This document shows positions 2,677 to 52,955 of a DNA stretch of 64,000 nucleotides, piece after piece. The notes beneath the pieces are model-generated. The model was not told where the DNA came from and did not search any database. It saw only the letters and a program-made list of their open reading frames with translations. How positions within the stretch are numbered: position 1 is the stretch's first letter; the number at the start of each line of letters is the position of its first letter. Source of the stretch: Promethearchaeota archaeon. Its GTDB lineage: Archaea; Asgardarchaeota; Heimdallarchaeia; Hodarchaeales; Hodarchaeaceae. Where the stretch lies: positions 6,726 through 70,725 of the forward strand of contig JBHLPQ010000001.1 of the NCBI GenBank assembly GCA_048939265.1, given 5' to 3'. The translations under genes and the position numbers were made by a program.

Positions 2677-2778
2677 TGCGCCGACCGGGAGTTTCAGTAA
2701 TGCTCTAATTAAGATTACATTTGAACCCGGGTCACCAGCTTGGGAGGCTGGAGTCCTACCAAACTAGACTATCGGCGC
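2677..2778 (-). tRNA. tRNA-Gly(CCC) containing a ~29-nt non-canonical intron in the T-loop (between positions 59/60 and 61). No encoded CCA.
   Basis: Manual fold of the minus strand: acceptor GCGCCGA/UCGGCGC, D-arm GUC..GAC with GG, anticodon stem CCAGC/GCUGG with loop CUCCCAA (U33, anticodon CCC, A37), T-stem CCGGG + loop UUCAAAU, then an inserted GUAAUCUUAAUUAGAGCAUUACUGAAACU before the 3' T-stem strand CCCGG. The intron can form a GUAAU/AUUAC helix. Confidence 0.7.
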
Positions 2779-2790
2779 ATGATAATTGGC

Positions 2791-2821
2791 TATTTAAACA
2801 ATTTTTAGTGTGAATTTAAAT
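2791..2821 (-). promoter_or_regulatory. Candidate archaeal TATA/BRE region upstream of tRNA-Gly (TTTAAATA and ATTTAAAT motifs)
   Basis: AT-rich box-A-like motifs 13-43 nt upstream of the tRNA 5' end on the transcribed strand. The spacing of the nearer one is too short for a TSS outside the tRNA, so the distal one is more likely. Confidence 0.3.
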
Positions 2822-2866: not shown

Positions 2867-3610
2867 TTAACGAAACACGTCAGTTTGACGATCCCTAATC
2901 AAAATTGTAGTAGAAATATCATCTTCTTCATATTCCACTCCCCGTACAATAATAACTGGTGTTCCCTCGTCAGATTGCCCCATCACAAGACCTGCTGCCG
3001 CAGCTACTTCATCCGCTTTAGCAACAACAGTTGATTTTAATTCATATCCAAAAAGATCTTTTCGTCCCCTTAAATCGTCAATAGGATTAATTCCTGCAAC
3101 TCCAATGGCAACGTTGACCGTACCTGCTCTGAGAGGGCGACCAAAGGTATCAGAAATAATAACAGCAACATTTATCCCTAATTCTTTGAATATTCGGTCT
3201 CTTATCCGTTTTGCTGATAAATCAGGATCATTAGGAAGACCAATAACAGTTTCACCTGGAGTGTTGGATTTATCTACGCCACTATTAGCACAAATAAAGC
3301 CGTGTTTAGTCGCAGTTATCAGGACATGCTCATTCATACGAATGATCTCACTACTCTCTTGAAGAATGACCTCAATTTTTCTTGGATCCTTATCTTGAAG
3401 CTCCGCAACAGATAACGCGAAGGAACTTGGATTAATTTCAGCAAGGTTGTATACTTTATTCTCCGCTTTGGAAACAATGGTATGAGCAATGACAAGGATA
3501 TCGTCATTTTCCAATGTAATTTTCCGTAATTCTGTAACCAAGATACTCTCGAGATCATCTCCTGGATTAATAAGAGGAAAGTCTCGAAGAGGAAAAATTG
3601 TGACTAACAT
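2867..3610 (-). CDS. cofE: CofE-family protein (coenzyme F420-0:gamma-glutamyl ligase-like)
   Basis: N-terminal PLINPGDDLESIL, ICANSGVDKSN, ISDTFGRPLRAGTVNVAIG and GQSDEGTPVIIVRG blocks match remembered CofE signatures. Length of about 247 aa fits. Confidence 0.7.
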   Translation of the reverse strand: MLVTIFPLRDFPLINPGDDLESILVTELRKITLENDDILVIAHTIVSKAENKVYNLAEINPSSFALSVAELQDKDPRKIEVILQESSEIIRMNEHVLITATKHGFICANSGVDKSNTPGETVIGLPNDPDLSAKRIRDRIFKELGINVAVIISDTFGRPLRAGTVNVAIGVAGINPIDDLRGRKDLFGYELKSTVVAKADEVAAAAGLVMGQSDEGTPVIIVRGVEYEEDDISTTILIRDRQTDVFR

Positions 3611-3753
3611 CGACTTTAAAATCCTAAAAAGAGTATTTAAGCCTCAGACCGCTCATCGTTCATCATTAATAACTTCTGTTCCCTAAGCTGTCATCATTGG
3701 CAGGACTGATATTAAATTAAATCTCAGATTAATATATATTTGTAGCTTACAAA

Positions 3754-4987: not shown

Positions 4988-7900
4988 ATGAAAATTATAA
5001 CAGAGGATCCTCTTTTTGGTGGAATAAAAGTGAAAAGAATACAAAACAATAAAATCTTCTTCCTCTTCATAGTATTATTATTTACCTATTCAGCTCAGGG
5101 ATTCATTCAGTTTTTTCAAACTGAGTCTATAGATTCCCACTCTTCTTCATTAGGTAATAGACAAGTCCCACCCCTTCAGGAAAATGGTCTTTCATCCTCC
5201 TCTTCTCCACGTACTGGGATCATTCCACCTTCAGGCTCTCGTCACTCTCCTCGGGCTGGTGTAAACGAAATAGTTGATGGAGGGTTTGTTTATTTTCCTG
5301 GTGACACGATTCACATCAGAAATCGGTTTAATATTCCTAACTATGATTTTGCAATATTATCTCAAAGGATTGATATTTATCTATTCAATAGTAGTGATAC
5401 TCCCGAAAATGTCTCAACCCACTTCGTCAAGTCAGATTATACTAATGGTTCGAGACCCGCCGAAGAACCCTCAATTTCGGATGATCCTCAACTTGGCTGG
5501 CTTGATACCACATTTCAAATTCCCACTTGGACAGAATTAAATGCTATGGGTATCGATGCTGATGATAATGTAACAATTTACCAATTCTATCCCTCATACA
5601 ATGTAACTTCTGAAATCTCTGGATGCCCACCTTTTAATCGAACTGATTCTTTTATCATTAGTGGCTATGCCATGTTTTCTGTTGATGCTCCTGGTTTGGT
5701 GAATCCTATTAGTGGGGACAATAGCTTTCGGCAGGGAGAAAATGCCACCGCTTCATTAACCGCAATTTCAGGGGTAGATCCTGTACCAGACGTAGCAGTT
5801 GACTGTTCCCTCTATTTCAGTAATGATATAGAAATTCTAAATGGAACCAATGGGTTCAACTATTATCTTCAAGATTCGTTGGGAAATCCATCAACTACAA
5901 CAGATTCGAATGGTAAGATCTACTTATTCGTGAATACAACCTATCCTACCACGTCTGAGAATGATTATTATTGTAATGTTACAGCCAATTTCGATGGAAC
6001 TGGTTTTTACACTAGTAATTACGTTCCTGGCAATCCAAGCACTAATACAGAGACAGCCTCGGTTGATTTCACGATTGATAATCAGGAAGACATCGTATCT
6101 ATTGATTTTATATCTGCCATTGGCGATACATCTGGTTGGCCAAAAGGGGAGAATGATTCCTGGCCCCTGAATCCCCCACTTGAAAACATCACGATTGTGA
6201 CATTTAGAGTTCAAGCTACTACCTCGTATAATGGGACCTCAACTCCCTATATCCTTGAGGGCATTCCTGTTAACGTAACTTTAGATTTCGGGGGTGGTTG
6301 GCCAGCAGGGGTAACCCTCAGTGCTGTCCCAGGATTTTCGTATAATGGTAGCTGGGCTTTCACTAATAGTGCTGGACTTGTCCAATTTAATATCACTGCG
6401 ATATATCCTACTTATTATGGTCAAAAAACCCCAACTATTATTGCGAGGGCAAATTTGCAGAATAATTCAGCTTTATCCTACCCCTATTCTTCTGTTTTAT
6501 TGCCCCATCGTTTTCTGACTTCTGCGACTGGTGTTAATGCTACCACTTCCAAAGTGATCAGTATTGACCATGATTTTTGGATTGGAGAGATTTCCTCTTC
6601 GCTAAACGACACTAGTATCCGACCAGGAGAAGGAGCGAGACTAGCGACGCAAATCTATGCTTATGGGGATTATTACGATGACCAATACCATCAGTCAATC
6701 TCTCCAATTGGCACCCTTCCTGTGAAAATTGAATTAATCCAACAGATTCCTGGCGTTAGTATTATTAATACGAATCCTGTTGCTCCGAATCCGGGCTACC
6801 ACTATACGGATATAAATGGCTGGATATATGTGGATATTAGCACAACCTTTGGGGTCACTCCTGAATACTATCTCAACCTGGGAATTAAAATAACGGTCGA
6901 TTTTGAAAATGATTCAAATCCCCGCTTGATTGGTCCGTATCATGCTGGTTATGATACTTTTGCAGAATTCGACAAAACATGGAATACAATCCAGAGAAAT
7001 CTTGACATTGATGCTAATTATATACTTTGTAACATCTACACAAGAGATCTTATTGAGAACGGAATATCCTACCCTTCTTCTAGCACAGAAGCAAAAATCC
7101 TCCGTCCAGGTGACGTCTTGGATGTTTATTTTGAGGTCGAAGAGGTCATAGAGGCTATTTCTTTAGGGAGTATTCCTGTAAACGTCTCACTGAGTGTCTC
7201 TGATCCAGAGGTCTCAATAGGATTCATTTATTCTGATGGTGAAGCAAGACCGAACTACCATAAAACAAGAAGTGATGGATATATAGCGATTCGTGTCACC
7301 ACTACCAGTAGTCTAAAACCTCAAGTAATTCAACTCAAAGCAATAGCCGATTTTGCCAATGACTCTTTGCCCTGGCATGTAGGCCCGAAAAATTACACTC
7401 AATTCATTGGGAATAGCTCATATTCTGAGATCATTTTTGACATTACTATTAATCCTCAATATTTTACGGGCAGTATTTATAGGCCTAATCCATCTATAAA
7501 TCCGAATGCCTCGTTAGTCGTTCAAGGCGAAACCTTTGAAATCAGATTTGATTTAAGGCTCACTTTTCACAATACTGGAGAAATTCTTCCCCTGGCCAAT
7601 GCTCTCATTGACGGAATCTCCATTACTCTCCTAGTAAACGGTACAACGAACTACGGCCTTTATAAGATGCGAGTGCTAAATGAGACTCTTTTAGAAGCCT
7701 CCAGTCAAAACACTGTTGATAGCACAGTAATTTTTTATGTCCAAACAAATGTTTCAGGGTCCACTGTAGAAGATACATACAATATCTCTGCTAGCGCTAA
7801 TTTTGGAGCTGCTAAGGGATGGATTTATAATATTACTCATCCGTCGGTACCTACAGGGGAATTGTCAGGAGACTGGGTCAATGGTTCCTCCGCAGCTGAT

Positions 7901-10189
7901 TTTGCTCACATTAAAAACATTAATATTATCGTTCGGAATATTGACAAAATCACTACTAGAATGGGGGAAATTACTGATGGATCTCATACTGATGCGGGAT
8001 TCAATGCTCTTTCAGACCACTATGAGGTCTATAGAGGGACAAGCTCGATAAATGTGACTGGTGATTATTTAGACTCTGAAACTAAGGGAGGTATTTATCC
8101 AGCCACTATTGTCATCTCGTTCAATTACACAGGGGGTACTTATGATCATCCAACTACAACCTCTACTGATGCAAATGGCGAATTTTTTGTGATTGTTACC
8201 ATACCTAACTGGTTCCCATTAGAAAACATTACCATATATTGTTGGGATCAAGGAAACCCAATTCCAAGAGAAGGACGAACAGGTGTATCTAACGTTAGGG
8301 TAGTTTCCACTATTGATTTAACTTATAATCTGAGCGGTTTCACGGGTAACTCTGTTTTTATAGGGGAAAGCGTGACCGTTTCTGGAACAATAACGGATGA
8401 CCAAGGGAATGATATATCTGCATATTTGGTTAACAGTTTACGTGTAAGTGGGTGGAATGGAACTCATGAATTTGCGCCTATAGTAGGAAGTGCTACAGGT
8501 ACAAACTATAATCTAGTTTATCTAACACCATATGACTTTACTGGGGATAGTCTGATTATAAGGTTAAACATCACTGACAATCCACAGCTCCTTCATTATC
8601 GATTGAATTCTGCAGAACAACTCATCAATATCTACCATGATTTCGAAATCATCTCCCTACAAATCTATTTTCCCTCTAATGATACTCTTGTCGACATTAG
8701 CAATAATAGCATATATTTAATTACTGGAATCATGAATCGAGACATTGAATTAAGGGGAACACTTCAAGATTCTACTGGACGTACACTTTGGGGGAAATGG
8801 ATACATGATTTCTGGAATGAATCAAGTATGTTACCTCAGCTCGTAAATATCGATGGAAATTATTCCCTAACTCGTGCATTTCCAGGATGGGAAAATATCA
8901 CATCCTTCAGCTGGAGCATTTATCATGAGTTAGACAATGGTTCCCTGCTGGAAAAGCGTTATTCCATTACTCTGCAATGGGAGGTTTACGATGAGACTCC
9001 TCCCTCAATAGTCATAATTGATCCAGTAACCATTGGGAGCCTAGCAATTCTCTCAGAAAATGCTACTACAATACTCAATGCTACTGTTTTTGACCCTGAT
9101 TCAGGATCAGGGGTTGTTTCAGTTGGTCTTGGTAGTGTAATTCTTTGGATTGATGGAACAAGCTATCCAACAACTCAAAACGGACAGAACTACTTTTATA
9201 ACTGGGATACTGCAAGTCCAGAGGATAAAACCTATAACATCACAGTCGAAGCTTTTGATTTAGGAAATAATCAGTATTCAACCGAGATCACAGTTGTTTT
9301 TGATATTATTGACCCCACAGCAACCATACAATACGATAGTAATAATAGTTATCTTATGGTTGACTCATCAGGGGTTGTAAGTATTTCAGGTTCCTTAGCT
9401 GACTCGGCTTCAGCATCAGGGGAAAATAGTGGTGTGGATAACTCCTCAATTAGCCTCATTATCCGAAATGATGCTTCAATAGTCCACACTCTCTCTAGTG
9501 GAGATCTTAATATTGATCAAGATACCTATTCGTATAATTGGCAAATATATGATCCTATTACTCTGATTCGGGATCCCCGTTACACCTCAGAAGTTGCCTG
9601 GACATTAATCTTAACTGTTAATGATAGTATTGGAAATTCGTTACAGATTGTAGAATCGGTGAACCTTGACAATGTTGACCCTGATTTGATAATTTCTCAA
9701 GAGCCCGATTTAACAGTCGATGAAGATGTTGAAATTGCAGTAATTTTCACGGACGCAGTAGATCCCACTGATTTAGGAAGTGGCGTTAACACTGATACCT
9801 TAGAATTCGAGCTGGTATCTGAGGATACACAGGATGTTCTTTCCTCTTACACTGCCTCTGACACTCAAGTAACCTTGAGCTCCACAAGTGCATCCTTGAA
9901 ACTAGATATTTCATCCGAGCCAGATGGTGATTACTTCATTAGGACAAGGATAGCGGATAATACCGCGAATATACAAGAAGTATCTTCCAGAGTCTTTACC
10001 ATTTTTCATGCACCAGAGACATCTGCACCCCCTCAAACCTCAGAACCCTCAGGTCCGAATGGTACTCAACCCCAAGTGGTTTTCAGAGTTAATCTATTTC
10101 AGTTAATTCTATTTCCCACTTTGGCGATGGGGGGCGGTGTAGGTGTAGCAGCTTTGTATGAGAGAGTCAAAAAAATGCGAAATTTATGA
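4988..10189 (+). CDS. Giant secreted/cell-surface protein (1733 aa) with an N-terminal signal/anchor, dozens of N-glycosylation sequons, a Pro/Ser/Thr-rich stalk and a C-terminal TM helix with a basic tail. Candidate S-layer or adhesin.
   Basis: Hydrophobic N-terminus (FFLFIVLLFTYSAQG), very many NxS/T motifs, beta-rich Thr/Ser/Asn/Tyr composition. The C-terminus is ...SAPPQTSEPSGPNGTQPQ..LILFPTLAMGGGVGVAALYERVKKMRNL. Confidence 0.7.
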   Translation: MKIITEDPLFGGIKVKRIQNNKIFFLFIVLLFTYSAQGFIQFFQTESIDSHSSSLGNRQVPPLQENGLSSSSSPRTGIIPPSGSRHSPRAGVNEIVDGGFVYFPGDTIHIRNRFNIPNYDFAILSQRIDIYLFNSSDTPENVSTHFVKSDYTNGSRPAEEPSISDDPQLGWLDTTFQIPTWTELNAMGIDADDNVTIYQFYPSYNVTSEISGCPPFNRTDSFIISGYAMFSVDAPGLVNPISGDNSFRQGENATASLTAISGVDPVPDVAVDCSLYFSNDIEILNGTNGFNYYLQDSLGNPSTTTDSNGKIYLFVNTTYPTTSENDYYCNVTANFDGTGFYTSNYVPGNPSTNTETASVDFTIDNQEDIVSIDFISAIGDTSGWPKGENDSWPLNPPLENITIVTFRVQATTSYNGTSTPYILEGIPVNVTLDFGGGWPAGVTLSAVPGFSYNGSWAFTNSAGLVQFNITAIYPTYYGQKTPTIIARANLQNNSALSYPYSSVLLPHRFLTSATGVNATTSKVISIDHDFWIGEISSSLNDTSIRPGEGARLATQIYAYGDYYDDQYHQSISPIGTLPVKIELIQQIPGVSIINTNPVAPNPGYHYTDINGWIYVDISTTFGVTPEYYLNLGIKITVDFENDSNPRLIGPYHAGYDTFAEFDKTWNTIQRNLDIDANYILCNIYTRDLIENGISYPSSSTEAKILRPGDVLDVYFEVEEVIEAISLGSIPVNVSLSVSDPEVSIGFIYSDGEARPNYHKTRSDGYIAIRVTTTSSLKPQVIQLKAIADFANDSLPWHVGPKNYTQFIGNSSYSEIIFDITINPQYFTGSIYRPNPSINPNASLVVQGETFEIRFDLRLTFHNTGEILPLANALIDGISITLLVNGTTNYGLYKMRVLNETLLEASSQNTVDSTVIFYVQTNVSGSTVEDTYNISASANFGAAKGWIYNITHPSVPTGELSGDWVNGSSAADFAHIKNINIIVRNIDKITTRMGEITDGSHTDAGFNALSDHYEVYRGTSSINVTGDYLDSETKGGIYPATIVISFNYTGGTYDHPTTTSTDANGEFFVIVTIPNWFPLENITIYCWDQGNPIPREGRTGVSNVRVVSTIDLTYNLSGFTGNSVFIGESVTVSGTITDDQGNDISAYLVNSLRVSGWNGTHEFAPIVGSATGTNYNLVYLTPYDFTGDSLIIRLNITDNPQLLHYRLNSAEQLINIYHDFEIISLQIYFPSNDTLVDISNNSIYLITGIMNRDIELRGTLQDSTGRTLWGKWIHDFWNESSMLPQLVNIDGNYSLTRAFPGWENITSFSWSIYHELDNGSLLEKRYSITLQWEVYDETPPSIVIIDPVTIGSLAILSENATTILNATVFDPDSGSGVVSVGLGSVILWIDGTSYPTTQNGQNYFYNWDTASPEDKTYNITVEAFDLGNNQYSTEITVVFDIIDPTATIQYDSNNSYLMVDSSGVVSISGSLADSASASGENSGVDNSSISLIIRNDASIVHTLSSGDLNIDQDTYSYNWQIYDPITLIRDPRYTSEVAWTLILTVNDSIGNSLQIVESVNLDNVDPDLIISQEPDLTVDEDVEIAVIFTDAVDPTDLGSGVNTDTLEFELVSEDTQDVLSSYTASDTQVTLSSTSASLKLDISSEPDGDYFIRTRIADNTANIQEVSSRVFTIFHAPETSAPPQTSEPSGPNGTQPQVVFRVNLFQLILFPTLAMGGGVGVAALYERVKKMRNL

Positions 10190-39629: not shown

Positions 39630-39730
39630 GGCCGACGTAGGATAGATACGAGCAGCTGACTGCTTGTAGTACAATGGTAGTCTCGGAGGTTGTGGCCCTT
39701 CATGTCCGGGTTCGATTCCCGGTGTCGGCC
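39630..39730 (+). tRNA. tRNA-His(GUG) with an encoded G-1 and a ~27-nt insertion (non-canonical intron) in the D-arm region. No encoded CCA.
   Basis: Manual fold: G-1 then acceptor GCCGACG/UGUCGGC, discriminator C73 (the G-1:C73 pair is diagnostic of His), anticodon stem GGAGG/CCUUC with loop UUGUGGC (anticodon GUG), T-arm CCGGG-UUCGAUU-CCCGG. The 5' half between the acceptor and anticodon stems is about 27 nt too long and contains a GCAGC/GCUGC hairpin, consistent with a BHB intron. Confidence 0.6.
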
Positions 39731-41115: not shown

Positions 41116-41883
41116 ATGACGAATGAAAAAGAGGCCTCTCTCATGTCAGCAGAGCAAAACAATGTACTGTTTCAGAAATTCAATCTTTCCTTAAATCTAA
41201 AATTACCTCTAGCATTACTCATTGAAGCTCTTACACACCCGTCCTACAAATCAGTAGATCCTAATATTCGTGATAATCAACGACTTGAAACGCTTGGAGA
41301 TTCCGTTATTGATCTTCTCGTTCTTAATTGGTTCTATCACAAGGATGTAATGACTGAAGGAATGTTAACGAAGAAACGGGCCGAAATTGTCCAAAACACC
41401 ACATTAGCGAAAATAGGGAAAGACTTACAATTAGACTCAATCCTACGCTGTGCACCAGCTTATATAATTCAAGAAAAAGATATTGCTGATACTATTGAAG
41501 CCATCTTCGGAGCAGTATTCGTAGCTAATGGATTGTCTTTATGTCAGTCGCTGTTATTACAACTGTTTGAGGATCTTTTAGATAATGCTTTGAACTCCGA
41601 TGAGAATGAAAGCTTTATTCTAGGCCAAAATGAAATTAATCCAAAAAATCAGCTCCAGGAATTTTTTCAGCAGCGGTATTTACCTGAACCTATATATCGA
41701 TTACTTAAAAAGGAGGGGAGTGATCATGAACCAAGATATTGGTATTTATGTCAAGGAACATACCAAGAGGAGATTGTGAAAGGGGAAGGATTTGGAAAAA
41801 ATAAAAAAGAAGCGCAGAAAGACGCTGCCCAAAACTTGCTCAAAAAACTCATTCACTTGGAAAATCAGGTTAATTGTGATTAA
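41116..41883 (+). CDS. rnc: Ribonuclease III (bacterial-type, catalytic domain plus C-terminal dsRBD)
   Basis: RNase III signature HPSY....NQRLETLGDSVIDLLV, a second acidic cluster DTIEAIFGAVF, and a C-terminal dsRBD (NPKNQLQEFFQQRYLPEPIYRL...GEGFGKNKKEAQKDAAQNLLKKL). Confidence 0.85.
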   Translation: MTNEKEASLMSAEQNNVLFQKFNLSLNLKLPLALLIEALTHPSYKSVDPNIRDNQRLETLGDSVIDLLVLNWFYHKDVMTEGMLTKKRAEIVQNTTLAKIGKDLQLDSILRCAPAYIIQEKDIADTIEAIFGAVFVANGLSLCQSLLLQLFEDLLDNALNSDENESFILGQNEINPKNQLQEFFQQRYLPEPIYRLLKKEGSDHEPRYWYLCQGTYQEEIVKGEGFGKNKKEAQKDAAQNLLKKLIHLENQVNCD

Positions 41884-41902: not shown

Positions 41903-42298
41903 CTATTTCAAGGGGACAAATTGTGATCCTCTTGTGGCTCCAATACCAGGAGCGGAGTGCTTAACCTGTTTACAGGTGGGCGCAAACTCCCCTAAATAAT
42001 GTCCAAGCATTTCTGGGAGAAGATTGACACGAAGAAACTCCTTACCGTTGTAAACCTGAACAACAGCACCAATAAGTTCGGGAAGAATGATGAAATCGCG
42101 GCAGTGCGTTCGAATAGGCCGTTTTGATTCTTTGCTAGCCAGAATGCGTTCCATTAGTTTAATGTGCTGAGAACTCATTCCACGGGTCAGAGATCGACGC
42201 TGGCGAGCAGGAAGGAGGGAAATAAATTCATCCATGGATTTTTGACGGAGTTCATCGAGTGTAAATCCACGATAACGAAAACCACGACGTGATGACAA
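41903..42298 (-). CDS. rps19: 30S ribosomal protein S19 (uS19 / S15e-type archaeal form)
   Basis: FRYRGFTLDELRQKSMDEFISLLPARQRRSL....THCRDFIILPELIGAVVQVYNGKEF...PEMLGHYLGEFAPT.K.VKHSAPGIGATR matches archaeal/eukaryotic uS19. Confidence 0.85.
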   Translation of the reverse strand: MSSRRGFRYRGFTLDELRQKSMDEFISLLPARQRRSLTRGMSSQHIKLMERILASKESKRPIRTHCRDFIILPELIGAVVQVYNGKEFLRVNLLPEMLGHYLGEFAPTCKQVKHSAPGIGATRGSQFVPLK

Positions 42299-42659
42299 TT
42301 AAATTCACCTTTACTTTCATATCCAGGGAAAATAAGATAGGGTTAAAAAAAAGTAGGTAGACCATCTGATGGAGGAGAGTTAAGAAAATTAAATGTATTA
42401 AAAATGCTGTATTATAAAAAAGGTTAGAATGGAGAATTTAATGTGTTGTAGAAACCAAAATAGCTGAAATAATGAATAGGCAAGGAAGAGGCAGAAATTC
42501 TTCAAAGGATTTGAAATGCGTACATGAATCAGTGGGAGGAGATGATTTTTATAACGAAAAAATCGTAACCTTAAATGTTTAAAACAAGCCAATACTACGT
42601 GTAAAGGTTAAAAAACAGGAAAACAATAGAGGATTCAGGATTATTCCTCAATCTTTAAA

Positions 42660-43136
42660 ATGGTTGAATTTGAAGTGCCGAATTACAAGATCTCCGTCTT
42701 TGGGTTAGATGCAGACCGCACTGCGATTGCAACAGGACGGAATATGCGAATTTCGCCAAAGCATGCTCGTGAAATTTGTCATGAATTAAAAGGGAAATAC
42801 TTAGAAACCGCTCAAGAATATCTTGAACAAGTAATCGCAGGAGAAAAAAGTGTTCCTTTCAAACGATATCGGAAAAAAATACCTCACCGACGCGATTTAC
42901 AGAAATGGCCAGCAGGGCGTTACCCCCAAAAGGCAGCAAGGGAAATTCTCCGAGTCTTGGAAAATGTGGAACAGAATTCCTCATTCAAAGGATTAGAGGT
43001 TAGCCGGTTACGAATAACCCATATTGCGGCTCAAAGAGGACGAAAAATCCGAGGAATTATGCCACGAGCCCATGGACGGTCATCACCAAGCAATCAAACA
43101 TTAACTCATGTCGAGGTAGTGGTTACGGAGGAGTGA
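42660..43136 (+). CDS. rpl22: 50S ribosomal protein L22 (uL22)
   Basis: Archaeal uL22 pattern (ISPKHAREICHELKGKYLETAQEYLEQV....GLEVSRLRITHIAAQRG), in position before uS3. Confidence 0.85.
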   Translation: MVEFEVPNYKISVFGLDADRTAIATGRNMRISPKHAREICHELKGKYLETAQEYLEQVIAGEKSVPFKRYRKKIPHRRDLQKWPAGRYPQKAAREILRVLENVEQNSSFKGLEVSRLRITHIAAQRGRKIRGIMPRAHGRSSPSNQTLTHVEVVVTEE

Positions 43137-43139
43137 GGG
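43127..43139 (+). promoter_or_regulatory. Shine-Dalgarno-like GGAGGAGTGAGGG immediately upstream of the rps3 start
   Basis: A purine-rich GGAGG stretch ending about 2-7 nt before the ATG of the internal operon gene. Confidence 0.3.
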
Positions 43140-43140
43140 A

Positions 43141-43932
43141 ATGGCTGCAAGAAAAGAGTTATTAAATAGGAATTTGCAATACGTTCAAGTAAGTGAATAC
43201 CTAAATGATGAATTACAGTTAGCAGGGCAAGGGAAGGTTGAGATTCATAAAACACCAATGGGCCATCGAGTGGTAATCCACGCTGTACGATTAGGAATGG
43301 TGATTGGGAGACGTGGACGAAATATTAGAAAAATCACTGAAATTCTAGAGCATAAATTCGGATTAGAAACTCCTCAACTAGAAATCAAAGATCTTGAAAA
43401 TCCTAGACTTAATTCCCGAGTAATGGCTGGTAGATTAATTTCACAAATTCAAAAGGGGTTCCACTTTCGTAGAGCAGGGTATGCTTTAGTTCGACGAATC
43501 ATGTCCGCAGACGCACGAGGTTGCGAAATTACAATAAAAGGCAAATTAACCTCCCAACGAGCACGTGCGGAAGTTTTCAGAGAAGGGTTCGTGGCAAAAT
43601 GTGGAGAGCCTTCAAAAAGATACGTCGAAGATACAGTAATGGAAGTAACACTCAAACAGGGAGTTATCGGGGTACATGTAAAGATTATGCAACCCGATGC
43701 AGTACTCCCTGATGATGCCGTACTCATACCAAATGTTTTTGGTGAACCAAAAGATGAAGTGATCATCGAGGAAGAAGAAGAATTTGTCGAAGAAGAACTA
43801 AAACCAGAAACTGAGGAAGAGCCCATACCTGAAACGAAAGCAGAAGAAGATATAATTGAAGCGGATCCTGAAGATGCAATTGAAAAAAGTGAAGAATTGC
43901 TGAAAGAGGAAGATTTTGAAGAAGAAAGGTGA
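43141..43932 (+). CDS. rps3: 30S ribosomal protein S3 (uS3) with an acidic C-terminal extension
   Basis: KH domain (RLGMVIGRRGRNIRKITEILEHKFG), the uS3 C-terminal domain, then a Glu-rich tail. Confidence 0.9.
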   Translation: MAARKELLNRNLQYVQVSEYLNDELQLAGQGKVEIHKTPMGHRVVIHAVRLGMVIGRRGRNIRKITEILEHKFGLETPQLEIKDLENPRLNSRVMAGRLISQIQKGFHFRRAGYALVRRIMSADARGCEITIKGKLTSQRARAEVFREGFVAKCGEPSKRYVEDTVMEVTLKQGVIGVHVKIMQPDAVLPDDAVLIPNVFGEPKDEVIIEEEEEFVEEELKPETEEEPIPETKAEEDIIEADPEDAIEKSEELLKEEDFEEER

Positions 43933-44150
43933 TAGAAACGGCAATATTAAGGAAAGCTGAGATTCGGAAATTGTCTCTTCCTGAACGGGAGAAGAAGTTA
44001 AAAGAATTGAAAACCGAATTATTGACATTGAGAGGCAAAGCTAAAACAGGATCAATTGAATCCGCCGGTCGTGTCCGTGAACTAAGACGAACAGTGGCAC
44101 GAATCCTTACCATTAATAAGGAAGAGCAAAATGTCCCGAAATCACCGTGA
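43929..44150 (+). CDS. rpl29: 50S ribosomal protein L29 (uL29), GTG start
   Basis: LRKAEIRKLSLPEREKKLKELKTELLTLRGKAKTG..ESAGRVRELRRTVARILTI matches the uL29 helical hairpin. The start overlaps the rps3 stop. Confidence 0.8.
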   Translation: MIETAILRKAEIRKLSLPEREKKLKELKTELLTLRGKAKTGSIESAGRVRELRRTVARILTINKEEQNVPKSP

Positions 44151-44418
44151 AGTATCACTAGAGAGAAATCTATTAAGAATTAGGTTAATAAATCGTCAAT
44201 GCGAAATTGAATATTCAGGCAATGTATTTTCAGGACAAATTAGGAACGAAACAAAAAATACCTGGGAAATAATGACCACATCAGGGTTGAAAACAATCCC
44301 AAAGGATCAAGCTAAATTACGAATCACAATTAATAACCAATCATACAAAATAAATGGTAACCAAATGAAAGGACGATATGAAGATCGCATTAAGCGTATG
44401 AGGAAACGTAAATGGTGA
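44131..44418 (+). CDS. rnp1: Ribonuclease P protein component 1 (Rpp29/Pop4 homolog)
   Basis: Conserved operon position between uL29 and uS17 in archaea. The Sm-like beta region is followed by the C-terminal GRYEDRIKRMRKRK basic tail typical of Rpp29. Confidence 0.65.
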   Translation: MSRNHREVSLERNLLRIRLINRQCEIEYSGNVFSGQIRNETKNTWEIMTTSGLKTIPKDQAKLRITINNQSYKINGNQMKGRYEDRIKRMRKRKW

Positions 44419-44756
44419 AGAAAAAGTATTCACGACAAATTGGAATCGCCCCGACACCTAAGAGGACGTGTGATGACCAGAACTGTCCCTTCCATGGAAC
44501 ATTATCTGTTCGTGGACGAATTATTGAAACAAAAGTGATTTCAGACAGAATGGACAAAACAGTGACAGTTGAAAGACCATATCTGGAATTAATAAGGAAA
44601 TACAAACGTTATGGGCGATCAACAATACGAATGCATGCTCATAATCCCCCTTGCATCGACGCGAAGGTGGGAGACCATATACGAATTGGAGAATGTCGTC
44701 CACTATCAAAAACCGTTTCTTTCGTTGTAATTGAAAATCTTGGGAAAGGAGAATGA
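44412..44756 (+). CDS. rps17: 30S ribosomal protein S17 (uS17)
   Basis: GIAPTPKRTCDDQNCPFHGTLSVRGRIIETKVISDRMDKTVTV.....KYKRYGRSTIRMHAHNPPCIDAKVGDHIRIGECRPLSKTVSFVVIE matches the uS17 OB-fold. Confidence 0.85.
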   Translation: MVKKKYSRQIGIAPTPKRTCDDQNCPFHGTLSVRGRIIETKVISDRMDKTVTVERPYLELIRKYKRYGRSTIRMHAHNPPCIDAKVGDHIRIGECRPLSKTVSFVVIENLGKGE

Positions 44757-44760
44757 TAAA

Positions 44761-45177
44761 GTGAAAAAAAGAAGATCATTAAGGCTTGTAACAAGGCGAA
44801 TAACACGCGCACTACCCACTGGAGCTATTGTAAGAGTGGCAGATAACTCTGGGGCAAGAATGATTCAGGTAATTAGTGTGAAAGGGCATAACACCCGATT
44901 AAGAAGACAACCAGCTGCTAGGGTCGGGGATATGATCGTATGTTCAGTCAAAAAAGGAACCCCAAAACTAAGAAGGCAGATAGTCCACGCCGTTGTAATT
45001 AGACAGAAAAAACCCTATAAACGATCAGATGGGAGTTGGGTATATTTTGAAGATAACGCAGTAGTAGTCACAAACGAACAAGGAGAACCACGTGGAAGCG
45101 AAATCCGAGGAGCCGTATCAAAAGAAGCTGCTGATGCGTGGCCACGAATTGCGAGTACTGCAAGAGTGATTTCCTGA
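44761..45177 (+). CDS. rpl14: 50S ribosomal protein L14 (uL14). The GTG start is chosen just after the rps17 stop; the alternative in-table ATG at 44731 would overlap rps17.
   Basis: TRALPTGAIVRVADNSGARMIQVISVKG...VGDMIVCSVKKGTPKLRRQIVHAVVIRQKK......FEDNAVVV matches the uL14 consensus. Confidence 0.8.
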   Translation: MKKRRSLRLVTRRITRALPTGAIVRVADNSGARMIQVISVKGHNTRLRRQPAARVGDMIVCSVKKGTPKLRRQIVHAVVIRQKKPYKRSDGSWVYFEDNAVVVTNEQGEPRGSEIRGAVSKEAADAWPRIASTARVIS

Positions 45178-45180
45178 AAG

Positions 45181-45606
45181 GTGAAAAAAATGGGTACAAA
45201 GACTCGAGATCCATCGAAACAAAGACGCAGGCTATACTCCGCAGACTCATTTCATCGATCAAAACTGATGTCAGCACGACTCTCCAAAGACCTACGAGAG
45301 AAGTACAAGGTGAGAAAAATGCCCGTACGAACAGGCGATACGGTCTATATTACCACGGGCGACTTCACTGGGACAGAAGGGAAAGTACTCTCTATCGATA
45401 CGAAAAAACGACGATTAGCAGTTGATGGAATTGCCCGCGAGAAAGCAGATAAATCAAAAGTAATGTACAAAATTGACCCCTCAAAAGTGGTTATTCGGCG
45501 GTTTGGAAAAGTAGATAGATCACGAAAGAAGATTCTTGAGCGACGGGCAAAAATGGAACTGGAAATTGACGAAGAGGACATCAGCGTTGTGGAAGAAGAG
45601 GAATAA
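45181..45606 (+). CDS. rpl24: 50S ribosomal protein L24 (uL24, KOW domain) with an acidic tail
   Basis: KOW motif (KMPVRTGDTVYITTGDFTGTEGKVLSIDTKKRRLAVDGI) and archaeal operon position. Confidence 0.85.
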   Translation: MKKMGTKTRDPSKQRRRLYSADSFHRSKLMSARLSKDLREKYKVRKMPVRTGDTVYITTGDFTGTEGKVLSIDTKKRRLAVDGIAREKADKSKVMYKIDPSKVVIRRFGKVDRSRKKILERRAKMELEIDEEDISVVEEEE

Positions 45607-45620
45607 TGGAGTAGAGAACA

Positions 45621-46403
45621 ATGGGTAAGAAAGGAAGTCCCCGACATAGAAAACGATTAAGTGCTCCAATCGCATATCCTATCCCAAGAAAGCATGGAAT
45701 CTTTACAATCAGACCTTACCCGACACGAAGTACAAGGGAATCTTCGATCCCGTTAGGAATTGTAATTAGAGAAATATTAGGATACGCCAAAACCCTTTCC
45801 GAAGTTAAAAAAATACTCAGCAAGAAAATAATCAAAATTGATGGAAAAGTGCAAACTAGCTATAAATCTAGCTTAGGACCAATGGATATATTGGAAATTA
45901 CCAAAACGGAGGAATATTTTCGGCTAACCCCCTACCGTGGCAAACGAAGATTCAAATTACACCCAATTACCAAAGATAACGCTCATCTAAAAATGCAACG
46001 AATCCAAAGAAAACAGACAGTCAAGAATAACTTAATTCAACTTACATTTCACGATGGGAGGAACTACTTAATGGATCCTAAAGAGAAGTACAAATTTCCT
46101 ATACAAGAACTTGCAGCCAAAGACAGTGTGATGTTCAACCTGGAAGAAAAAATAATCGAAGATCATTTCCCCTTTACTGAAGGTAACACCGCATTAATTA
46201 TGGGAGGACATAATGTAGGAATCGTTGGCAAAATCCAAGAGATTGAAGCTCAAAGCGGTCGGAGAACAAAAACAGTTACTTTAGAAACAGAAGAAGGAGA
46301 AATAAAAACAACAGATCAACATCTATTTGTCATCGGCCGAGAAGAACCAGTCATTGAAATACCACAAGTAATCATCACCGAGGATACTCAAGATGAGCTT
46401 TAG
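45621..46403 (+). CDS. rps4e: 30S ribosomal protein S4e (eS4)
   Basis: GSPRHRKRLSAP..YPIPRK.G.F..RP.PTRSTRESSIPLGIVIRE matches the eS4 N-terminus. Length 260 aa and position after uL24. Confidence 0.85.
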   Translation: MGKKGSPRHRKRLSAPIAYPIPRKHGIFTIRPYPTRSTRESSIPLGIVIREILGYAKTLSEVKKILSKKIIKIDGKVQTSYKSSLGPMDILEITKTEEYFRLTPYRGKRRFKLHPITKDNAHLKMQRIQRKQTVKNNLIQLTFHDGRNYLMDPKEKYKFPIQELAAKDSVMFNLEEKIIEDHFPFTEGNTALIMGGHNVGIVGKIQEIEAQSGRRTKTVTLETEEGEIKTTDQHLFVIGREEPVIEIPQVIITEDTQDEL

Positions 46404-46995
46404 AAAAAGAACTCTCCCAACAGAAGAAGAAGAAAGGAAACCAGTTCCACTCACAGATGCCGAAAAAGCCTATGTAAAAGAATGGAAAGCACATCCAATG
46501 CGAAAACCACGCATTTTAAAAGTGTGCGTGAACTTTGCAGTAGGATCATCCGGACCAAAACTGGAACAAGCTAGAGAACTGTGTGAAATCTTAACAAATC
46601 AAGCACCAGCAGATGGGAGAGCAAAAGAGTCTGTTAGAGGATTTGGTATTAGAAAACATGAACCCATCGCAGTATTCACAACGCTAAGAGGAGAACTTGC
46701 TGAAGAATTCCTGAAGAAAGCGTTTTGGGCTGTAGAAGATCAAGTTTCACAGAGAAATTTTGATAGACATGGAAACCTATCATTGGGAATAGACGACCAC
46801 CTAAAATTACCCAATATTAAATACGATCCTAAAATCGGAGTTCACGGATTTGATACAACAGTAGTTTTGGAACGCCCTGGTTATCGAACAAATCGACGGA
46901 GATCACGGAGAATGAAAATCCCAGCTAGCCATAGAATTACTAAAGAGGAAGGTATTGCTTTTTTCAAGCATGAGTTCAATCTTGGAGTTGTCTAA
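46393..46995 (+). CDS. rpl5: 50S ribosomal protein L5 (uL5)
   Basis: [38 protein letters not shown].......[20 protein letters not shown]....FLKKAFWAV matches uL5. Confidence 0.85.
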
Positions 46996-46996
46996 T

Positions 46997-47155
46997 ATGC
47001 ATAAGATGTCAGAGCCAAAGAAAAAGTTTGGGAAGGGAACACGTACCTGTCGGAGATGTGGGACACATAGAGCAGTTATACGAAAATATGGATTGTACAT
47101 CTGCAGACGATGTATCCGAGAAATTGCAGACGACTTAGGTTTTAGAAAATATTGA
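46997..47155 (+). CDS. rps14: 30S ribosomal protein S14 type Z (uS14, zinc-binding). Start moved to the internal ATG after the rpl5 stop.
   Basis: [45 protein letters not shown] is a canonical Zn-ribbon uS14. The in-table start at 46955 would overlap rpl5 by 40 nt. Confidence 0.8.
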
Positions 47156-48021
47156 CAGCTAGACGAACTCCATTCCAACAAATTCAACAAGTAATCCGAG
47201 ACCAAGAAATTCTACCAGAAAAAAAGCTTGCACTATTACCAAAACGCTGGAAGCGAGTAGGGGAAGTAGGGATATTAAATCTGAACCCAGAACTCTTACC
47301 CTGGAAGAGAGAAATAGGGGAAAAATATCTAGAATTCTTACCAGAACTAAAGACAATTGCACATAAAGTTGGAATAACAACTGCCACGATAAGGCAACCT
47401 GATAATGAGGTTCTAGCAGGAGACACCAATACAGTCACGCTACACAAGGAGTTAGGCTGTAAATTCTGGATAGACGCGCTGAAACTGACATTTTCCAATG
47501 GAAATCATGCAGAACGACAAAGGATGATAAGAATCTGCCAGAAACGGGAACAAATTATTGATATGTTTGCCTGTGTTGGAAACTTGTCATTACCAATAGC
47601 TGTTCACAATCCAGCTGTTAAAATAAAAGGAATTGAAATCAATCCAGAGGCATTTGAGTTCTTGAAAAAGAATATTCAGGTGAATCAGGTTAAGGAACAA
47701 TACCAAGCAGTATTTGGGGATAACCGGAAAGTCACACCAAAGGATTGGGCAGATCGAGTAATTATGGGATATTTCACCAGTGATAATGCTCAACTTGCTG
47801 CTGCCCTTACGAGTTTAAACCAAGAACATGGAGGAATCATTCATGTTCATGGATTATCTAGCTCACGTAATCCAACTGATTGGCATCCACAAATACAAGC
47901 AGTAATTGAAGAATCATTTCCTCATCTTATAATTAAAACTAATTATAAAAAAATTATCAAGACAGTCGCACCAGGCATTAACCACTATGTTAATGATATA
48001 GAAATACTATCCAATAAATAA
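47152..48021 (+). CDS. tRNA methyltransferase of the Trm5/Taw2 (Met-10+ like) class, TTG start
   Basis: SAM-dependent MTase motif I in a Met-10+ context ([16 protein letters not shown]...[21 protein letters not shown]), length 289 aa. The start overlaps the rps14 stop. Confidence 0.7.
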
Positions 48022-50261: not shown

Positions 50262-52955
50262 TTATTTCCTCTTGAATCTATCTCTGAATAGTACAAGAAT
50301 ACCAAGAGATAATGAGAGTGTAAGGAAGCTAGAAAAAGAGGTAATGCGCGGGGTACCAGGTTCTCCAGATGTCGTAGTAGTAGTGGTATCTGAGAGCATT
50401 GGAAGAGTAGCACTTACTTCATCAGAATACTCACTCTCACCAATGGGGTTAACAGCAGTGACAACATAATAATAGGTGGTTTCACGAACGATTGTAGTAT
50501 CCTCGAAAAATGTATTGGAAGTGTCTTCTAAGAAAGAATAACTGCCACTAGAGGTACCACGATAGATGTTATAATGCGAAATCGCACGTCCACCAGTATC
50601 AGTAGGAGGAGACCAGCTCAAATGAATATTATCCTCACTAGGAGTGGCAAGAAGACCTCGAGGAGGTGTAGGAACTGTCGCAGGAACAATTGGAGTTGCC
50701 CACGCTTCATTAGAGAAGAAACTTTCCCCAGCGCTGTTAACAGCAGTAACAACATAATAATATGTAGTCCCAGCAACAACGGTAGAATCATCGAGAGTAG
50801 TTCCAGTAGTAGAATTTAAAAAAGAATGGCTCCCACTGGAAGTGCCACGATAGATGTTGTAATGTGTAATCACACTTCCACCGTCATAACTGGGAGGAGC
50901 CCAATTTAACGTTACAGAATGCTCCCCTGCGGTAGCTTGAAGGTTTAATGGAGCACTTGGGAGTTCTAAGACTTCATACTTTCTTAATTCAGATCGATAA
51001 TTATTACCCAGGGAATCATTCCCAAAAACCTGAACTGTATGAACTCCTACAGGAGGCATAAGAATGGTAGTATTACCCAGAGTAGTGATATTTGCCCCAC
51101 CATCGAGAGAATACCCTGTCCAGAAGGGGGGAGTTGGAGTCGTATAATTTAGGAGTAAACCCTCATTCAGATTATCTCCAACATAATAATTCGGATCCCA
51201 ACTGAAACCAAAGGCATCCCATTGAGTGGCTCCAAAATAGGTAGGGATATCACTAGCTAAATACAGTTCATCTAGTGTATCTAAATCATTTTGAAATTCA
51301 ACATTCTGGACACGACTAATTTCAGTCCCATTTTCATTGGCGACAGTCCAGGTAAATTGACCATTCGCCCCGAGCTCACAATCGAACTGGATGGAATGAT
51401 GGTACCATTCATAACTGACAAGATCCGATATTGAATGCCAAGTAGTCCCATCAGAATACTCAAGGTTACTTAAAGTAGCACTAACAACATTAATTCGGAT
51501 TTCAACAGCAATTGTATCATCAAAAGCACGTAACTGGAGATAATGGGTTCCTGTGTAAGGCGCATGGATATTCTCTACAAGGGTGTAGAATTGAATGGTG
51601 CCAGTATTGGGAGGAGTATTAAAATAATGAACGCCATAGGTGTACGTCGCAGCTTGAGCATCACCAATGTGAAGAACCTTCTTATGACCGTAAATAGGGC
51701 CGTCATGAACCCCAATTCCAACATACTCCCCAGCTGTTGAATACTCATCAAGAAATTCAAGTTCTAATCCTGTGGCAGTATGACGTTCATTCTCAAAGCC
51801 AAAGGTCGCAGGATAATACCCACTCATTGGGGAGTTATACACTGTAGCCTCAGGGGAATGTAATCGGATCGGATCATTTATTATGGAAGATAGAGGTTCA
51901 GATTCAGCACATTTTCGAACAAAAACCCAATCACAACGGATTTCAGGAGAACCAGTGCCATCATGCCATGTACGGGCGCGGACTGCATGACCCATGCCCC
52001 AAGAGTCAGTTGATTGAAGAGCCTCACCATACCAAGTACCAGGGCCAGCATACATATCCATGGTAAGAATTCGAACCTGTAACGGAAGAGTGGGTATGGT
52101 AGAACTGTTTGTATGAGCAATAACAGCAGTTCCATTATCAAATTCAGCCAGAGAAGCATGTATCCGTCGAATCTCATGGGTAAACCAGGTTTCATATGAG
52201 AGGGCATTATCGGTAACTTCCCATCCTACTTCATAAGTAAAATTTCTAGTGAAAAAAGTATCACTTGGACCATAGGTACGACCTGTAGAGACTCCATTGG
52301 CCCCTTTGGCTCCATAAGTTTGGCCATGGTTAACGTAAAAGTCACTAAAACCAATATGGACACTAGACGCATGATCACTAGGAGTATCCGTCTGTAAAGA
52401 AACAACACCCCCAGCGACATCGGAAGTACTATAGGTATCACTTTCAGTTGTCCACTTACTCGAATCAATAACTGAACCAAGAAAATCATCGAAAAAGAGG
52501 AATGTGGCTTCCCCATCGCTTCCAGAACTAGCAGCAGTATTACCAGAAAACATATTGAAGGAGGAAGTACCTGCATCAGGAATCTTTACCCAAATGATTG
52601 AGGTGCCAATTGAATCCCAGAGTTCTATCCAATAAGATAACGGATTATTCTTCAAATCAAAAAATCGAATATCCGCCCCACTTATCTGTGCACGGGAATA
52701 ATCGAAGTTAGAAGGAGTTAAGACAATTTTAACATTGTAATCGGGAGTAGGGGTGGACTGATCTAAAGCAATCAGACTGTGATAAGTCCAACCTGCAGGA
52801 ATAATAGAAGCCCTTAGTACACTACTGTTTTCAGGAATCATCTCTTCAGAGAGAGAATTCTCGGTTAAAAGACTCCGAGAAGAAAAAGGAAGATCTTCTA
52901 ATGAAGTTAAAAAAATACAAAAAATAATGGCAATTAAGATTAGGCTCTTTCTCAT
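50262..52955 (-). CDS. Secreted/anchored surface protein: signal peptide, DUF2341-like domain, a central beta-rich (LamG/jelly-roll-like) region, two tandem fibronectin type III domains, a poly-Thr linker, and a C-terminal TM helix with a basic tail
   Basis: N-terminal MRKSLILIAIIFCIFLTSL. Residues 70-150 match the DUF2341 pattern (YNVKIVLTPSNFDYSRAQISGADIRFFD..NNPLSYWIELWD....IWVKIP......MFSGN). Two FN3 repeats both contain ..WxPP..GG..I.HYNIYRGTSSGS..F......TYYYVVTAVN..GES. The C-terminus is TTTTTTSGEPGTPRITSFSSFLTLSLSLGILVLFRDRFKRK. Confidence 0.7.
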   Translation of the reverse strand: MRKSLILIAIIFCIFLTSLEDLPFSSRSLLTENSLSEEMIPENSSVLRASIIPAGWTYHSLIALDQSTPTPDYNVKIVLTPSNFDYSRAQISGADIRFFDLKNNPLSYWIELWDSIGTSIIWVKIPDAGTSSFNMFSGNTAASSGSDGEATFLFFDDFLGSVIDSSKWTTESDTYSTSDVAGGVVSLQTDTPSDHASSVHIGFSDFYVNHGQTYGAKGANGVSTGRTYGPSDTFFTRNFTYEVGWEVTDNALSYETWFTHEIRRIHASLAEFDNGTAVIAHTNSSTIPTLPLQVRILTMDMYAGPGTWYGEALQSTDSWGMGHAVRARTWHDGTGSPEIRCDWVFVRKCAESEPLSSIINDPIRLHSPEATVYNSPMSGYYPATFGFENERHTATGLELEFLDEYSTAGEYVGIGVHDGPIYGHKKVLHIGDAQAATYTYGVHYFNTPPNTGTIQFYTLVENIHAPYTGTHYLQLRAFDDTIAVEIRINVVSATLSNLEYSDGTTWHSISDLVSYEWYHHSIQFDCELGANGQFTWTVANENGTEISRVQNVEFQNDLDTLDELYLASDIPTYFGATQWDAFGFSWDPNYYVGDNLNEGLLLNYTTPTPPFWTGYSLDGGANITTLGNTTILMPPVGVHTVQVFGNDSLGNNYRSELRKYEVLELPSAPLNLQATAGEHSVTLNWAPPSYDGGSVITHYNIYRGTSSGSHSFLNSTTGTTLDDSTVVAGTTYYYVVTAVNSAGESFFSNEAWATPIVPATVPTPPRGLLATPSEDNIHLSWSPPTDTGGRAISHYNIYRGTSSGSYSFLEDTSNTFFEDTTIVRETTYYYVVTAVNPIGESEYSDEVSATLPMLSDTTTTTTSGEPGTPRITSFSSFLTLSLSLGILVLFRDRFKRK
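50406..50957 (-). repeat. Tandem in-gene duplication encoding two FN3 domains (about 88 aa each) of the 897-aa surface protein
   Basis: The protein-level repeat ...HYNIYRGTSSGS.SFL..T.......T.V...TYYYVVTAVN..GES occurs twice back to back. The underlying DNA shows corresponding similarity (complements of GTTAACAGC.GTGACAAC near 50451..50462 and 50736..50747). Confidence 0.6.

Follow-up and report, generated by a model that had tools for sequence, protein, structure and literature searches.

The tRNA-Gly locus lies near the beginning of the window, which is the whole stretch of 64,000 nucleotides that was analysed. It is flanked on one side by the gene for CofE, the F420-0:gamma-glutamyl ligase (2867-3610), and on the other by an Urm1/ThiS-like ORF (2355-2648) followed by the gene for ornithine carbamoyltransferase (OTCase). 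The CofE protein of the window has a 100% identical match in a 'Promethearchaeota archaeon' MAG and shares 70-89% identity with proteins that carry the labels Hodarchaeota, Hodarchaeales, or Heimdallarchaeota. All of these labels fall within the Asgard kingdom Promethearchaeati. The remaining window is ordinary chromosomal DNA containing, among others, transporters, MoxR/DUF58 genes, acetyl-CoA synthetase, methylmalonyl-CoA mutase, and a ribosomal-protein operon.

Several of these neighbours have features of their own. The Urm1/ThiS-family ORF (97 aa, minus strand) starts 28 nt downstream of the 3' end of tRNA-Gly on the same strand and ends in ...VIHGGAFE, three residues after the diglycine. 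The spacer upstream of CofE contains a candidate archaeal C/D-box sRNA of textbook layout (3641-3701, minus strand), which consists of a C box AUGAUGA, a 12-nt guide, a D' box CAGA, a C' box AUGAUGA, another 12-nt guide, and a D box CUGA within a GCC/GGC terminal stem, and which scores 24.1 bits against Rfam sR1, below the threshold. Two very large predicted surface proteins are encoded in the window. One comprises 1733 aa (4988-10189, plus strand), does not match any Pfam family, and has a counterpart of 1720 aa at the same place in CP070695.1, while the other comprises 897 aa (50262-52955, minus strand) with DUF2341 and fibronectin type III domains. An RNase III of the bacterial type (RIIID and dsRBD; 41116-41883, plus strand) is found in this archaeal genome next to the ribosomal-protein operon, a synteny that is kept in three relatives (L105 176-910, L106, and L107). 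The plus strand shows a strong purine skew (AT and GC) at about 42000-48000, which is due to the ribosomal-protein operon (L22, S3, S4e, L5) and the subsequent gene for a Trm5/TYW2-type tRNA methyltransferase at 47152-48021.

The features of the tRNA-Gly locus, all on the minus strand and given in the order in which they would be transcribed, are as follows.

2813-2820, minus strand: TTTAAATT, a candidate for a TATA-like element at -42 to -35, 35-42 nt ahead of the mature 5' end
2677-2778, minus strand: complete tRNA-Gly(CCC) gene with a pre-tRNA body of 102 nt and the discriminator A73 at 2677, according to ARAGORN on the spliced product and to the orthologs
2720-2778, minus strand: 5' exon with tRNA positions 1-59 (acceptor 5' strand, D-arm, anticodon arm, variable loop, T-stem 5' strand, and T-loop U54-A59)
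2742-2744, minus strand: anticodon CCC (GGG on the plus strand), from the ARAGORN cloverleaf
2722-2725, minus strand: exon strand of the putative central helix H, T-loop U54 U55 C56 A57 (UUCA), pairing with the intron UGAA
2719-2721, minus strand: predicted 5' bulge A58 A59/U with the 5' splice site between 2720 and 2719, geometry from the sequence
2691-2719, minus strand: predicted intron of 29 nt at tRNA position 59/60, UGUAAUCUUAAUUAGAGCAUUACUGAAAC, with a 1-nt ambiguity (U) settled by the cleavage rule for bulge-helix-bulge (BHB) motifs
2697-2718, minus strand: intron hairpin h' with GUAAU/AUUAC (2714-2718 and 2697-2701) and an inner extension, showing compensatory double changes
2693-2696, minus strand: intron strand of the putative central helix H, UGAA, 4 bp with UUCA, invariant in 9/9 aligned orthologs
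2690-2692, minus strand: predicted 3' bulge A C/U60 with the 3' splice site between 2691 and 2690, geometry from the sequence, the middle base varying among orthologs
2685-2689, minus strand: outer helix h, T-stem 3' strand CCCGG, pairing with CCGGG at 2726-2730
2677-2690, minus strand: 3' exon with tRNA positions 60-73 (U60, T-stem 3' strand, acceptor 3' strand, and A73), present as a single copy in the window

The minus strand of 2677-2778 reads GCGCCGATAGTCTAGTTTGGTAGGACTCCAGCCTCCCAAGCTGGTGACCCGGGTTCAAA (5' exon), TGTAATCTTAATTAGAGCATTACTGAAAC (intron), and TCCCGGTCGGCGCA (3' exon). Deletion of the 29 nt at 2691-2719, by which ...GGGUUCAAA is joined to UCCCGG..., results in a product of 73 nt that is called tRNA-Gly(ccc) by ARAGORN, the only program from which this call was obtained. 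The cloverleaf has acceptor, D, anticodon, and T stems of 7, 4, 5, and 5 bp, an anticodon loop of 7 nt (CUCCCAA), a variable region of 4 nt, and the T-loop UUCAAAU. The universal bases U8, A14, G18G19, U33, U54U55C56, and A58 can all be read from the sequence. Glycine identity of the archaeal/eukaryal type is determined by the anticodon NCC, the base pairs C2:G71 and G3:C70, and the discriminator base A73, and the spliced product has this entire set with CCC as anticodon. CCA is not encoded in the gene, whose 3' end runs ...GCGCA-TCC. An AT-rich block, cATTTAAATTCAC, occupies the positions 30-42 nt ahead of the mature 5' end and is kept in the window and in the orthologs L099 and L001, and TTTAAATT within this block may be the TATA box of the gene.

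In the unspliced DNA ARAGORN does not find a tRNA, neither in the window nor in the region, with and without the intron option. Rfam, run with gathering as well as E-value cut-offs, gives only a partial match at the locus, in which the tRNA model RF00005 reaches 20.5 bits compared to a gathering score of 29, with model positions 7-64 aligned and the 3' strand of the T-stem lost. Such a score below the threshold is expected for a genomic sequence with an intron in the T-loop. An earlier note, made from the letters of the window, had proposed a tRNA-Gly(CCC) at 2677-2778 that standard scans would miss; the coordinates proved to be exact, the minus strand being left unstated there, and both the identity and the prediction on the scans agree with these results. 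An uninterrupted tRNA fold, which that note had set against its own reading, does not exist. Within 102 nt the exons stand contiguous and in collinear order, so that the gene is neither a split nor a permuted tRNA gene. Group I and group II introns need a catalytic core of hundreds of nucleotides; the insert has only 29 nt, and Rfam models of self-splicing intron families do not match at the locus.

The position of the intron is defined by the BHB motif, in which each cut is made after the second base of the bulge. According to this rule the intron is placed at 59/60. The geometry corresponds to the strict hBHBh' form, with the T-stem of 5 bp as helix h, UUCA/UGAA (4 bp) as the predicted helix H, 5 bp as helix h', and the bulges AAU and ACU of 3 nt each. 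Cuts after the second base of both bulges give exactly the mature 73-nt tRNA-Gly(ccc) called by ARAGORN. The earlier note had put a 29-nt segment between T-loop position ~59/60 and the 3' strand of the T-stem, had seen the GUAAU/AUUAC helix in it, and had suggested either a BHB or a relaxed BHB substrate. Segment and helix were found as described, and the motif turned out to be the strict one, including the 4-bp helix UUCA/UGAA that had gone unnoticed. Its remark that non-canonical introns are confined to certain archaeal lineages also fits the host, a Hodarchaeales-type Asgard archaeon from a lineage known for such introns.

In a brute-force scan of all window sequence not covered by ORFs of 150 aa or more, every BHB-like pair was excised and the product run through ARAGORN. 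Only two loci in the scanned non-coding sequence were obtained, the tRNA-Gly and a tRNA-His. At the tRNA-Gly locus, the excision of 2691-2719 is the sole solution with 4/4 pairs in H and 4/4 flanking pairs in h'. Folding of the 46 nt of T-arm and intron gives the BHB fold as ensemble centroid. For the same 46 nt the BHB fold has -9.2 kcal/mol versus -12.9 kcal/mol for the minimum free energy (MFE) structure, which omits the 4-bp helix H. Similarly, RNAalifold recovered the cloverleaf and the intron hairpin but left out the 4 bp of the central helix. In view of the strong comparative signal, we treat this as a limit of the energy models with respect to BHB motifs and not as counter-evidence. 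The proposed central helix H of the tRNA-Gly intron rests on geometry and comparative evidence.

The second locus of the scan is another interrupted tRNA gene, which is also missed in the window DNA by ARAGORN and which is matched by Rfam only at model positions 8-63 with 29.1 bits.

39630-39730, plus strand: tRNA-His(GUG) with encoded G-1, from the brute-force BHB and ARAGORN scan and the orthologs
39646-39674, plus strand: predicted intron of 29 nt in the D-loop at position 15/16, with a relaxed BHB motif

The relaxed motif has GGAU x GUAC with a conserved G.A mismatch as helix H, the bulges AGA and AAU, and a 9-bp hairpin as h'. Four orthologs (L105, L106, L107, and L108; minus strand) are located upstream of CobA. 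In all four the exon blocks UAGGAUA and UGGUAGUCUC are preserved, and their hairpin covaries. An alternative excision at 7/8 was rejected, as it would make the conserved UAGGAUA intronic and would result in G8 in L105 and in a U11-C24 mismatch.

The tRNA-Gly gene is found directly downstream of CofE in at least four Heimdall/Hodarchaeales genomes (CP070695.1, which corresponds to L001/L004, and L006, L007, and L008), and in all of these the intron has 29 nt and is located at the same site. The underlying CofE-based genome scan contained at least five loci of the relevant clade among the matches listed, most of the others belonging to Bathyarchaeia and bacteria. In the closed genome CP070695.1 the gene order CofE, tRNA-Gly, Urm1-like, and OTCase is kept. 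The exons of its tRNA-Gly are identical to those in the window except for one base in the D-loop, whereas the intron is different in sequence with the same length of 29 nt and the same site. Another closed genome, CP070760.1 (L003/L005), has a run of 100 N exactly at the place where the tRNA-Gly is expected (L003 3770-3869). In the 'chromosome' record of this genome, genes are separated in several places by exactly 100 N, and these stretches look like assembly gaps and not like real sequence. CP070760.1 is therefore uninformative with respect to the tRNA-Gly.

The metagenome scan was done with a pattern of exon bases only (CCCGGGTTCAAA N15-45 TCCCGGTCGGCGC), so that features of the intron could not be selected for. 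It revealed 21 loci in which the T-loop is interrupted by an intron of 28-42 nt. Several of these tRNA-Gly loci have extra introns, among them a canonical 37/38 intron in L088 and L094, with two or three in others. The multi-intron genes (L084, L085, L096, and L102; L086-L087, L091, L093, L095, and L100) combine an intron of 34-42 nt at 59/60 with one or two further introns. Their T-arm and acceptor exons are the same, and their anticodon loops appear by eye to include GCC, UCC, and CCC. The proteins on the contigs of L084, L085, L096, and L102 (JABAOH/JABAOC) are labelled Candidatus Aenigmarchaeota (DPANN) by NCBI. Based on these labels, the 59/60 site is also used outside Asgard, in the tRNA-Gly of a DPANN lineage.

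The comparison of the introns shows which parts are constrained. In a list of 21 T-loop introns, comprising the window, three genome orthologs, and 17 introns from the metagenome scan, a tetranucleotide of the intron pairs 4/4 with UUCA in 19 cases. Directly after the 5' bulge most of the 21 form a helix from unrelated sequences such as GUAAU/AUUAC, GACC/GGUC, or CAACG/CGUUG. The structure-anchored alignment contains 20 distinct introns (the window, three genome orthologs, and 16 from the scan), of which 18 have 4/4 pairs in the central helix H with 97.5% of the cells paired. Helix h' shows double changes in 5/5 pairs. The covariation score of this alignment is 0.215 compared to 0.088 for shuffled alignments, none of 500 reaching the observed value, and slid controls score at most 0.083. 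In nine aligned single-intron genes every helix of the cloverleaf is paired to 100%, H is invariant, two pairs of the anticodon stem show a compensatory change, and the covariation score is 0.110 compared to 0.066 for the shuffles (again 0/500 reach it). The mean column identity in the nine orthologs is 93% in the exons and 68% in the intron, where 19 of the 29 columns are variable. What does not vary within the intron among the nine genes is UGAA, the base with which the 3' bulge begins, the C closing h', and four bases of the inner hairpin. UGAA is kept also in introns that are otherwise unrelated. In one ortholog, L001, the base of h' is disturbed by two mismatches, which makes its motif a relaxed one. 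As far as the sequences tell, this conservation pattern is the signature of an excised intron that would be constrained only by the endonuclease motif. A chance origin of the predicted BHB arrangement at the tRNA-Gly is excluded because the same arrangement is conserved in independent genomes.

Taken together, the minus strand of 2677-2778 very probably encodes a functional tRNA-Gly(CCC) in an Asgard archaeon belonging to the Heimdall/Hodarchaeales group, the gene being split by a protein-spliced intron of 29 nt at 59/60. Another explanation would be a pseudogene, an old tRNA-Gly that was inactivated by the insertion of 29 nt into the T-loop and is no longer used, and the failure of standard tRNA finders on the genomic sequence is what would be expected in this case. 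However, the interrupted arrangement is kept across genomes whose neighbouring CofE is only 70-89% identical. The exons are 93% identical with all stems paired and compensatory changes in the anticodon stem while the insertion diverges, and the insertion keeps a covarying BHB motif. Decay would lose both the constraint on the exons and the motif, and we regard a pseudogene as very unlikely. It is also hard to imagine that the 29 nt are retained in the mature RNA, which would then be a structural tRNA variant or a tRNA-like RNA with an enlarged T-loop and an extra hairpin. The MFE fold of the unspliced sequence does keep the acceptor and T-stems with the insert as a hairpin, but a T-loop of 36 nt is incompatible with the conserved elbow of T-loop and D-loop. 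In addition, conservation of the insert is poor apart from the bases of which the endonuclease motif is made (UGAA, the G-C closing pair, and the first A of the bulge). Unrelated sequences of 28-42 nt at the same site elsewhere fit an excised spacer and not a functional domain, and retention of the insert is extremely improbable.

Archaeal integrative elements target tRNA genes, and for Thermoproteales a transposition of introns between tRNA genes has been proposed (PMC4090602). The insert could accordingly be the scar of a mobile element, either an integrase att site or a transposed intron-like segment, that resembles a BHB motif by chance. The window contains neither a duplicated 3' exon or other att-type duplication nor an intron-less junction or intron-less copy of the tRNA-Gly. 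The tRNA-Gly is bordered by ordinary genes (CofE, Urm1-like, and OTCase) in conserved synteny, and the intron has, by eye, no evident similarity to that of the tRNA-His in the window. The probability of a mobile-element scar is close to nil.

For the protein-spliced intron the following maturation can be proposed. In the precursor, U54-A57 of the T-loop would be paired with UGAA of the intron, and the T-stem and the GUAAU/AUUAC hairpin would complete the hBHBh' motif. Based on archaeal tRNA biology and the literature on Asgard EndA, both bulges would be cut by the archaeal splicing endonuclease EndA, which in Asgard is reported as an (alpha-beta)2 enzyme. The exons would then be joined by an RtcB-type ligase, as is established for archaeal tRNAs, and the ends would presumably be trimmed by RNase P and RNase Z. 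Because CCA is not encoded it would have to be added post-transcriptionally. As long as U54-A57 are paired with the intron, the elbow of T-loop and D-loop could not form, and splicing should precede the final folding and the modification of the T-loop. A Pfam scan of all 43 window ORFs with 150 aa or more revealed neither EndA nor RtcB.

It could further be imagined that the 59/60 intron of tRNA-Gly is old and vertically inherited instead of recently inserted, that it has been kept at this site, mostly with a length of 29 nt, throughout Hodarchaeales-type Asgard, the site being occupied also in tRNA-Gly genes on the Aenigmarchaeota-labelled contigs, and that it has been retained for a function. 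We consider this unlikely. If it were the case, the intron might impose an order on the maturation, with the T-loop locked as long as splicing has not occurred, it might protect the gene's T-arm and 3' end against integrases, or it might give rise to a stable circular RNA with the conserved CUC-N4-GAG hairpin.

For annotation, the failure of ARAGORN and Rfam means that tRNA-Gly(CCC) could falsely appear to be absent from a genome of this lineage. Hodarchaeales are generally taken to be the nearest archaeal relatives of eukaryotes known so far, and a correct inventory of their tRNAs and introns therefore bears on reconstructions of eukaryotic splicing. At stake is the reconstruction in which the eukaryotic system, which is restricted to 37/38, narrowed from an archaeal ancestor of broad specificity.

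The canonical 37/38 introns of Archaea and Eukarya share with the tRNA-Gly intron the presumed protein-catalysed excision by homologous endonucleases, which leave 2',3'-cyclic phosphate and 5'-OH ends. The canonical introns are located in the anticodon loop, however, whereas the intron of the window gene is located in the T-loop. The eukaryotic tRNA-splicing enzyme measures the distance from the tRNA body, and a cut in the T-loop is not expected. Introns in the T-arm of tRNAs are known from nucleomorphs and Cyanidioschyzon merolae, and their excision has been confirmed experimentally (PMC4090602). These are likewise insertions into the T-arm of otherwise normal tRNA genes, but the hosts are eukaryotic and some of the introns have only 3 nt and no clear BHB motif. 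A relationship by descent is not implied.

Non-canonical BHB introns in tRNA genes of Crenarchaeota and Thermoproteales are said to have been described by Marck and Grosjean in 2003 and by Sugahara et al. in 2008. These introns have been reviewed, and 59/60 is among the listed non-canonical positions of archaeal tRNA introns (PMC4090602). The intron of the window resembles them in its site, the BHB architecture, the short length class, and the presumed processing by EndA and RtcB. The hosts differ, being thermophiles of the TACK group there and a Hodarchaeales-type Asgard archaeon here. Compared to those introns, the intron of the window has the predicted strict hBHBh' form and is stably inherited at a syntenic locus across relatives at about the level of genera.

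Closest to the host are other Asgard archaea. A study of four Asgard genomes describes non-canonical as well as multiple introns in their tRNA genes and reports the EndA of Asgard, a Heimdallarchaeota genome being included, as an (alpha-beta)2 enzyme with an L1 loop that confers broad specificity (PMC5829648). This type of EndA explains why non-canonical positions are tolerated. In Atabeyarchaeia and Freyarchaeia 92-95% of the tRNA genes have introns, with the non-canonical ones being abundant, and a tRNA-Gly(CCC) with three introns is tabulated (PMC11291895). All these genomes belong to the same superphylum as the host, and their introns are often non-canonical as well. The two studies present genome-wide counts for other Asgard classes, while the window gene has a single intron. 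A conservation of the 59/60 intron of tRNA-Gly through Hodarchaeales is not stated in PMC11291895, PMC5829648, or PMC4090602. Seen against these systems, the tRNA-Gly gene is an ordinary example, whose mechanism and intron position are already well described. There are two additions, both only modest, namely the stable inheritance of the intron at a syntenic locus of the Hodarchaeales type and the use of the same site in the tRNA-Gly of a DPANN lineage.
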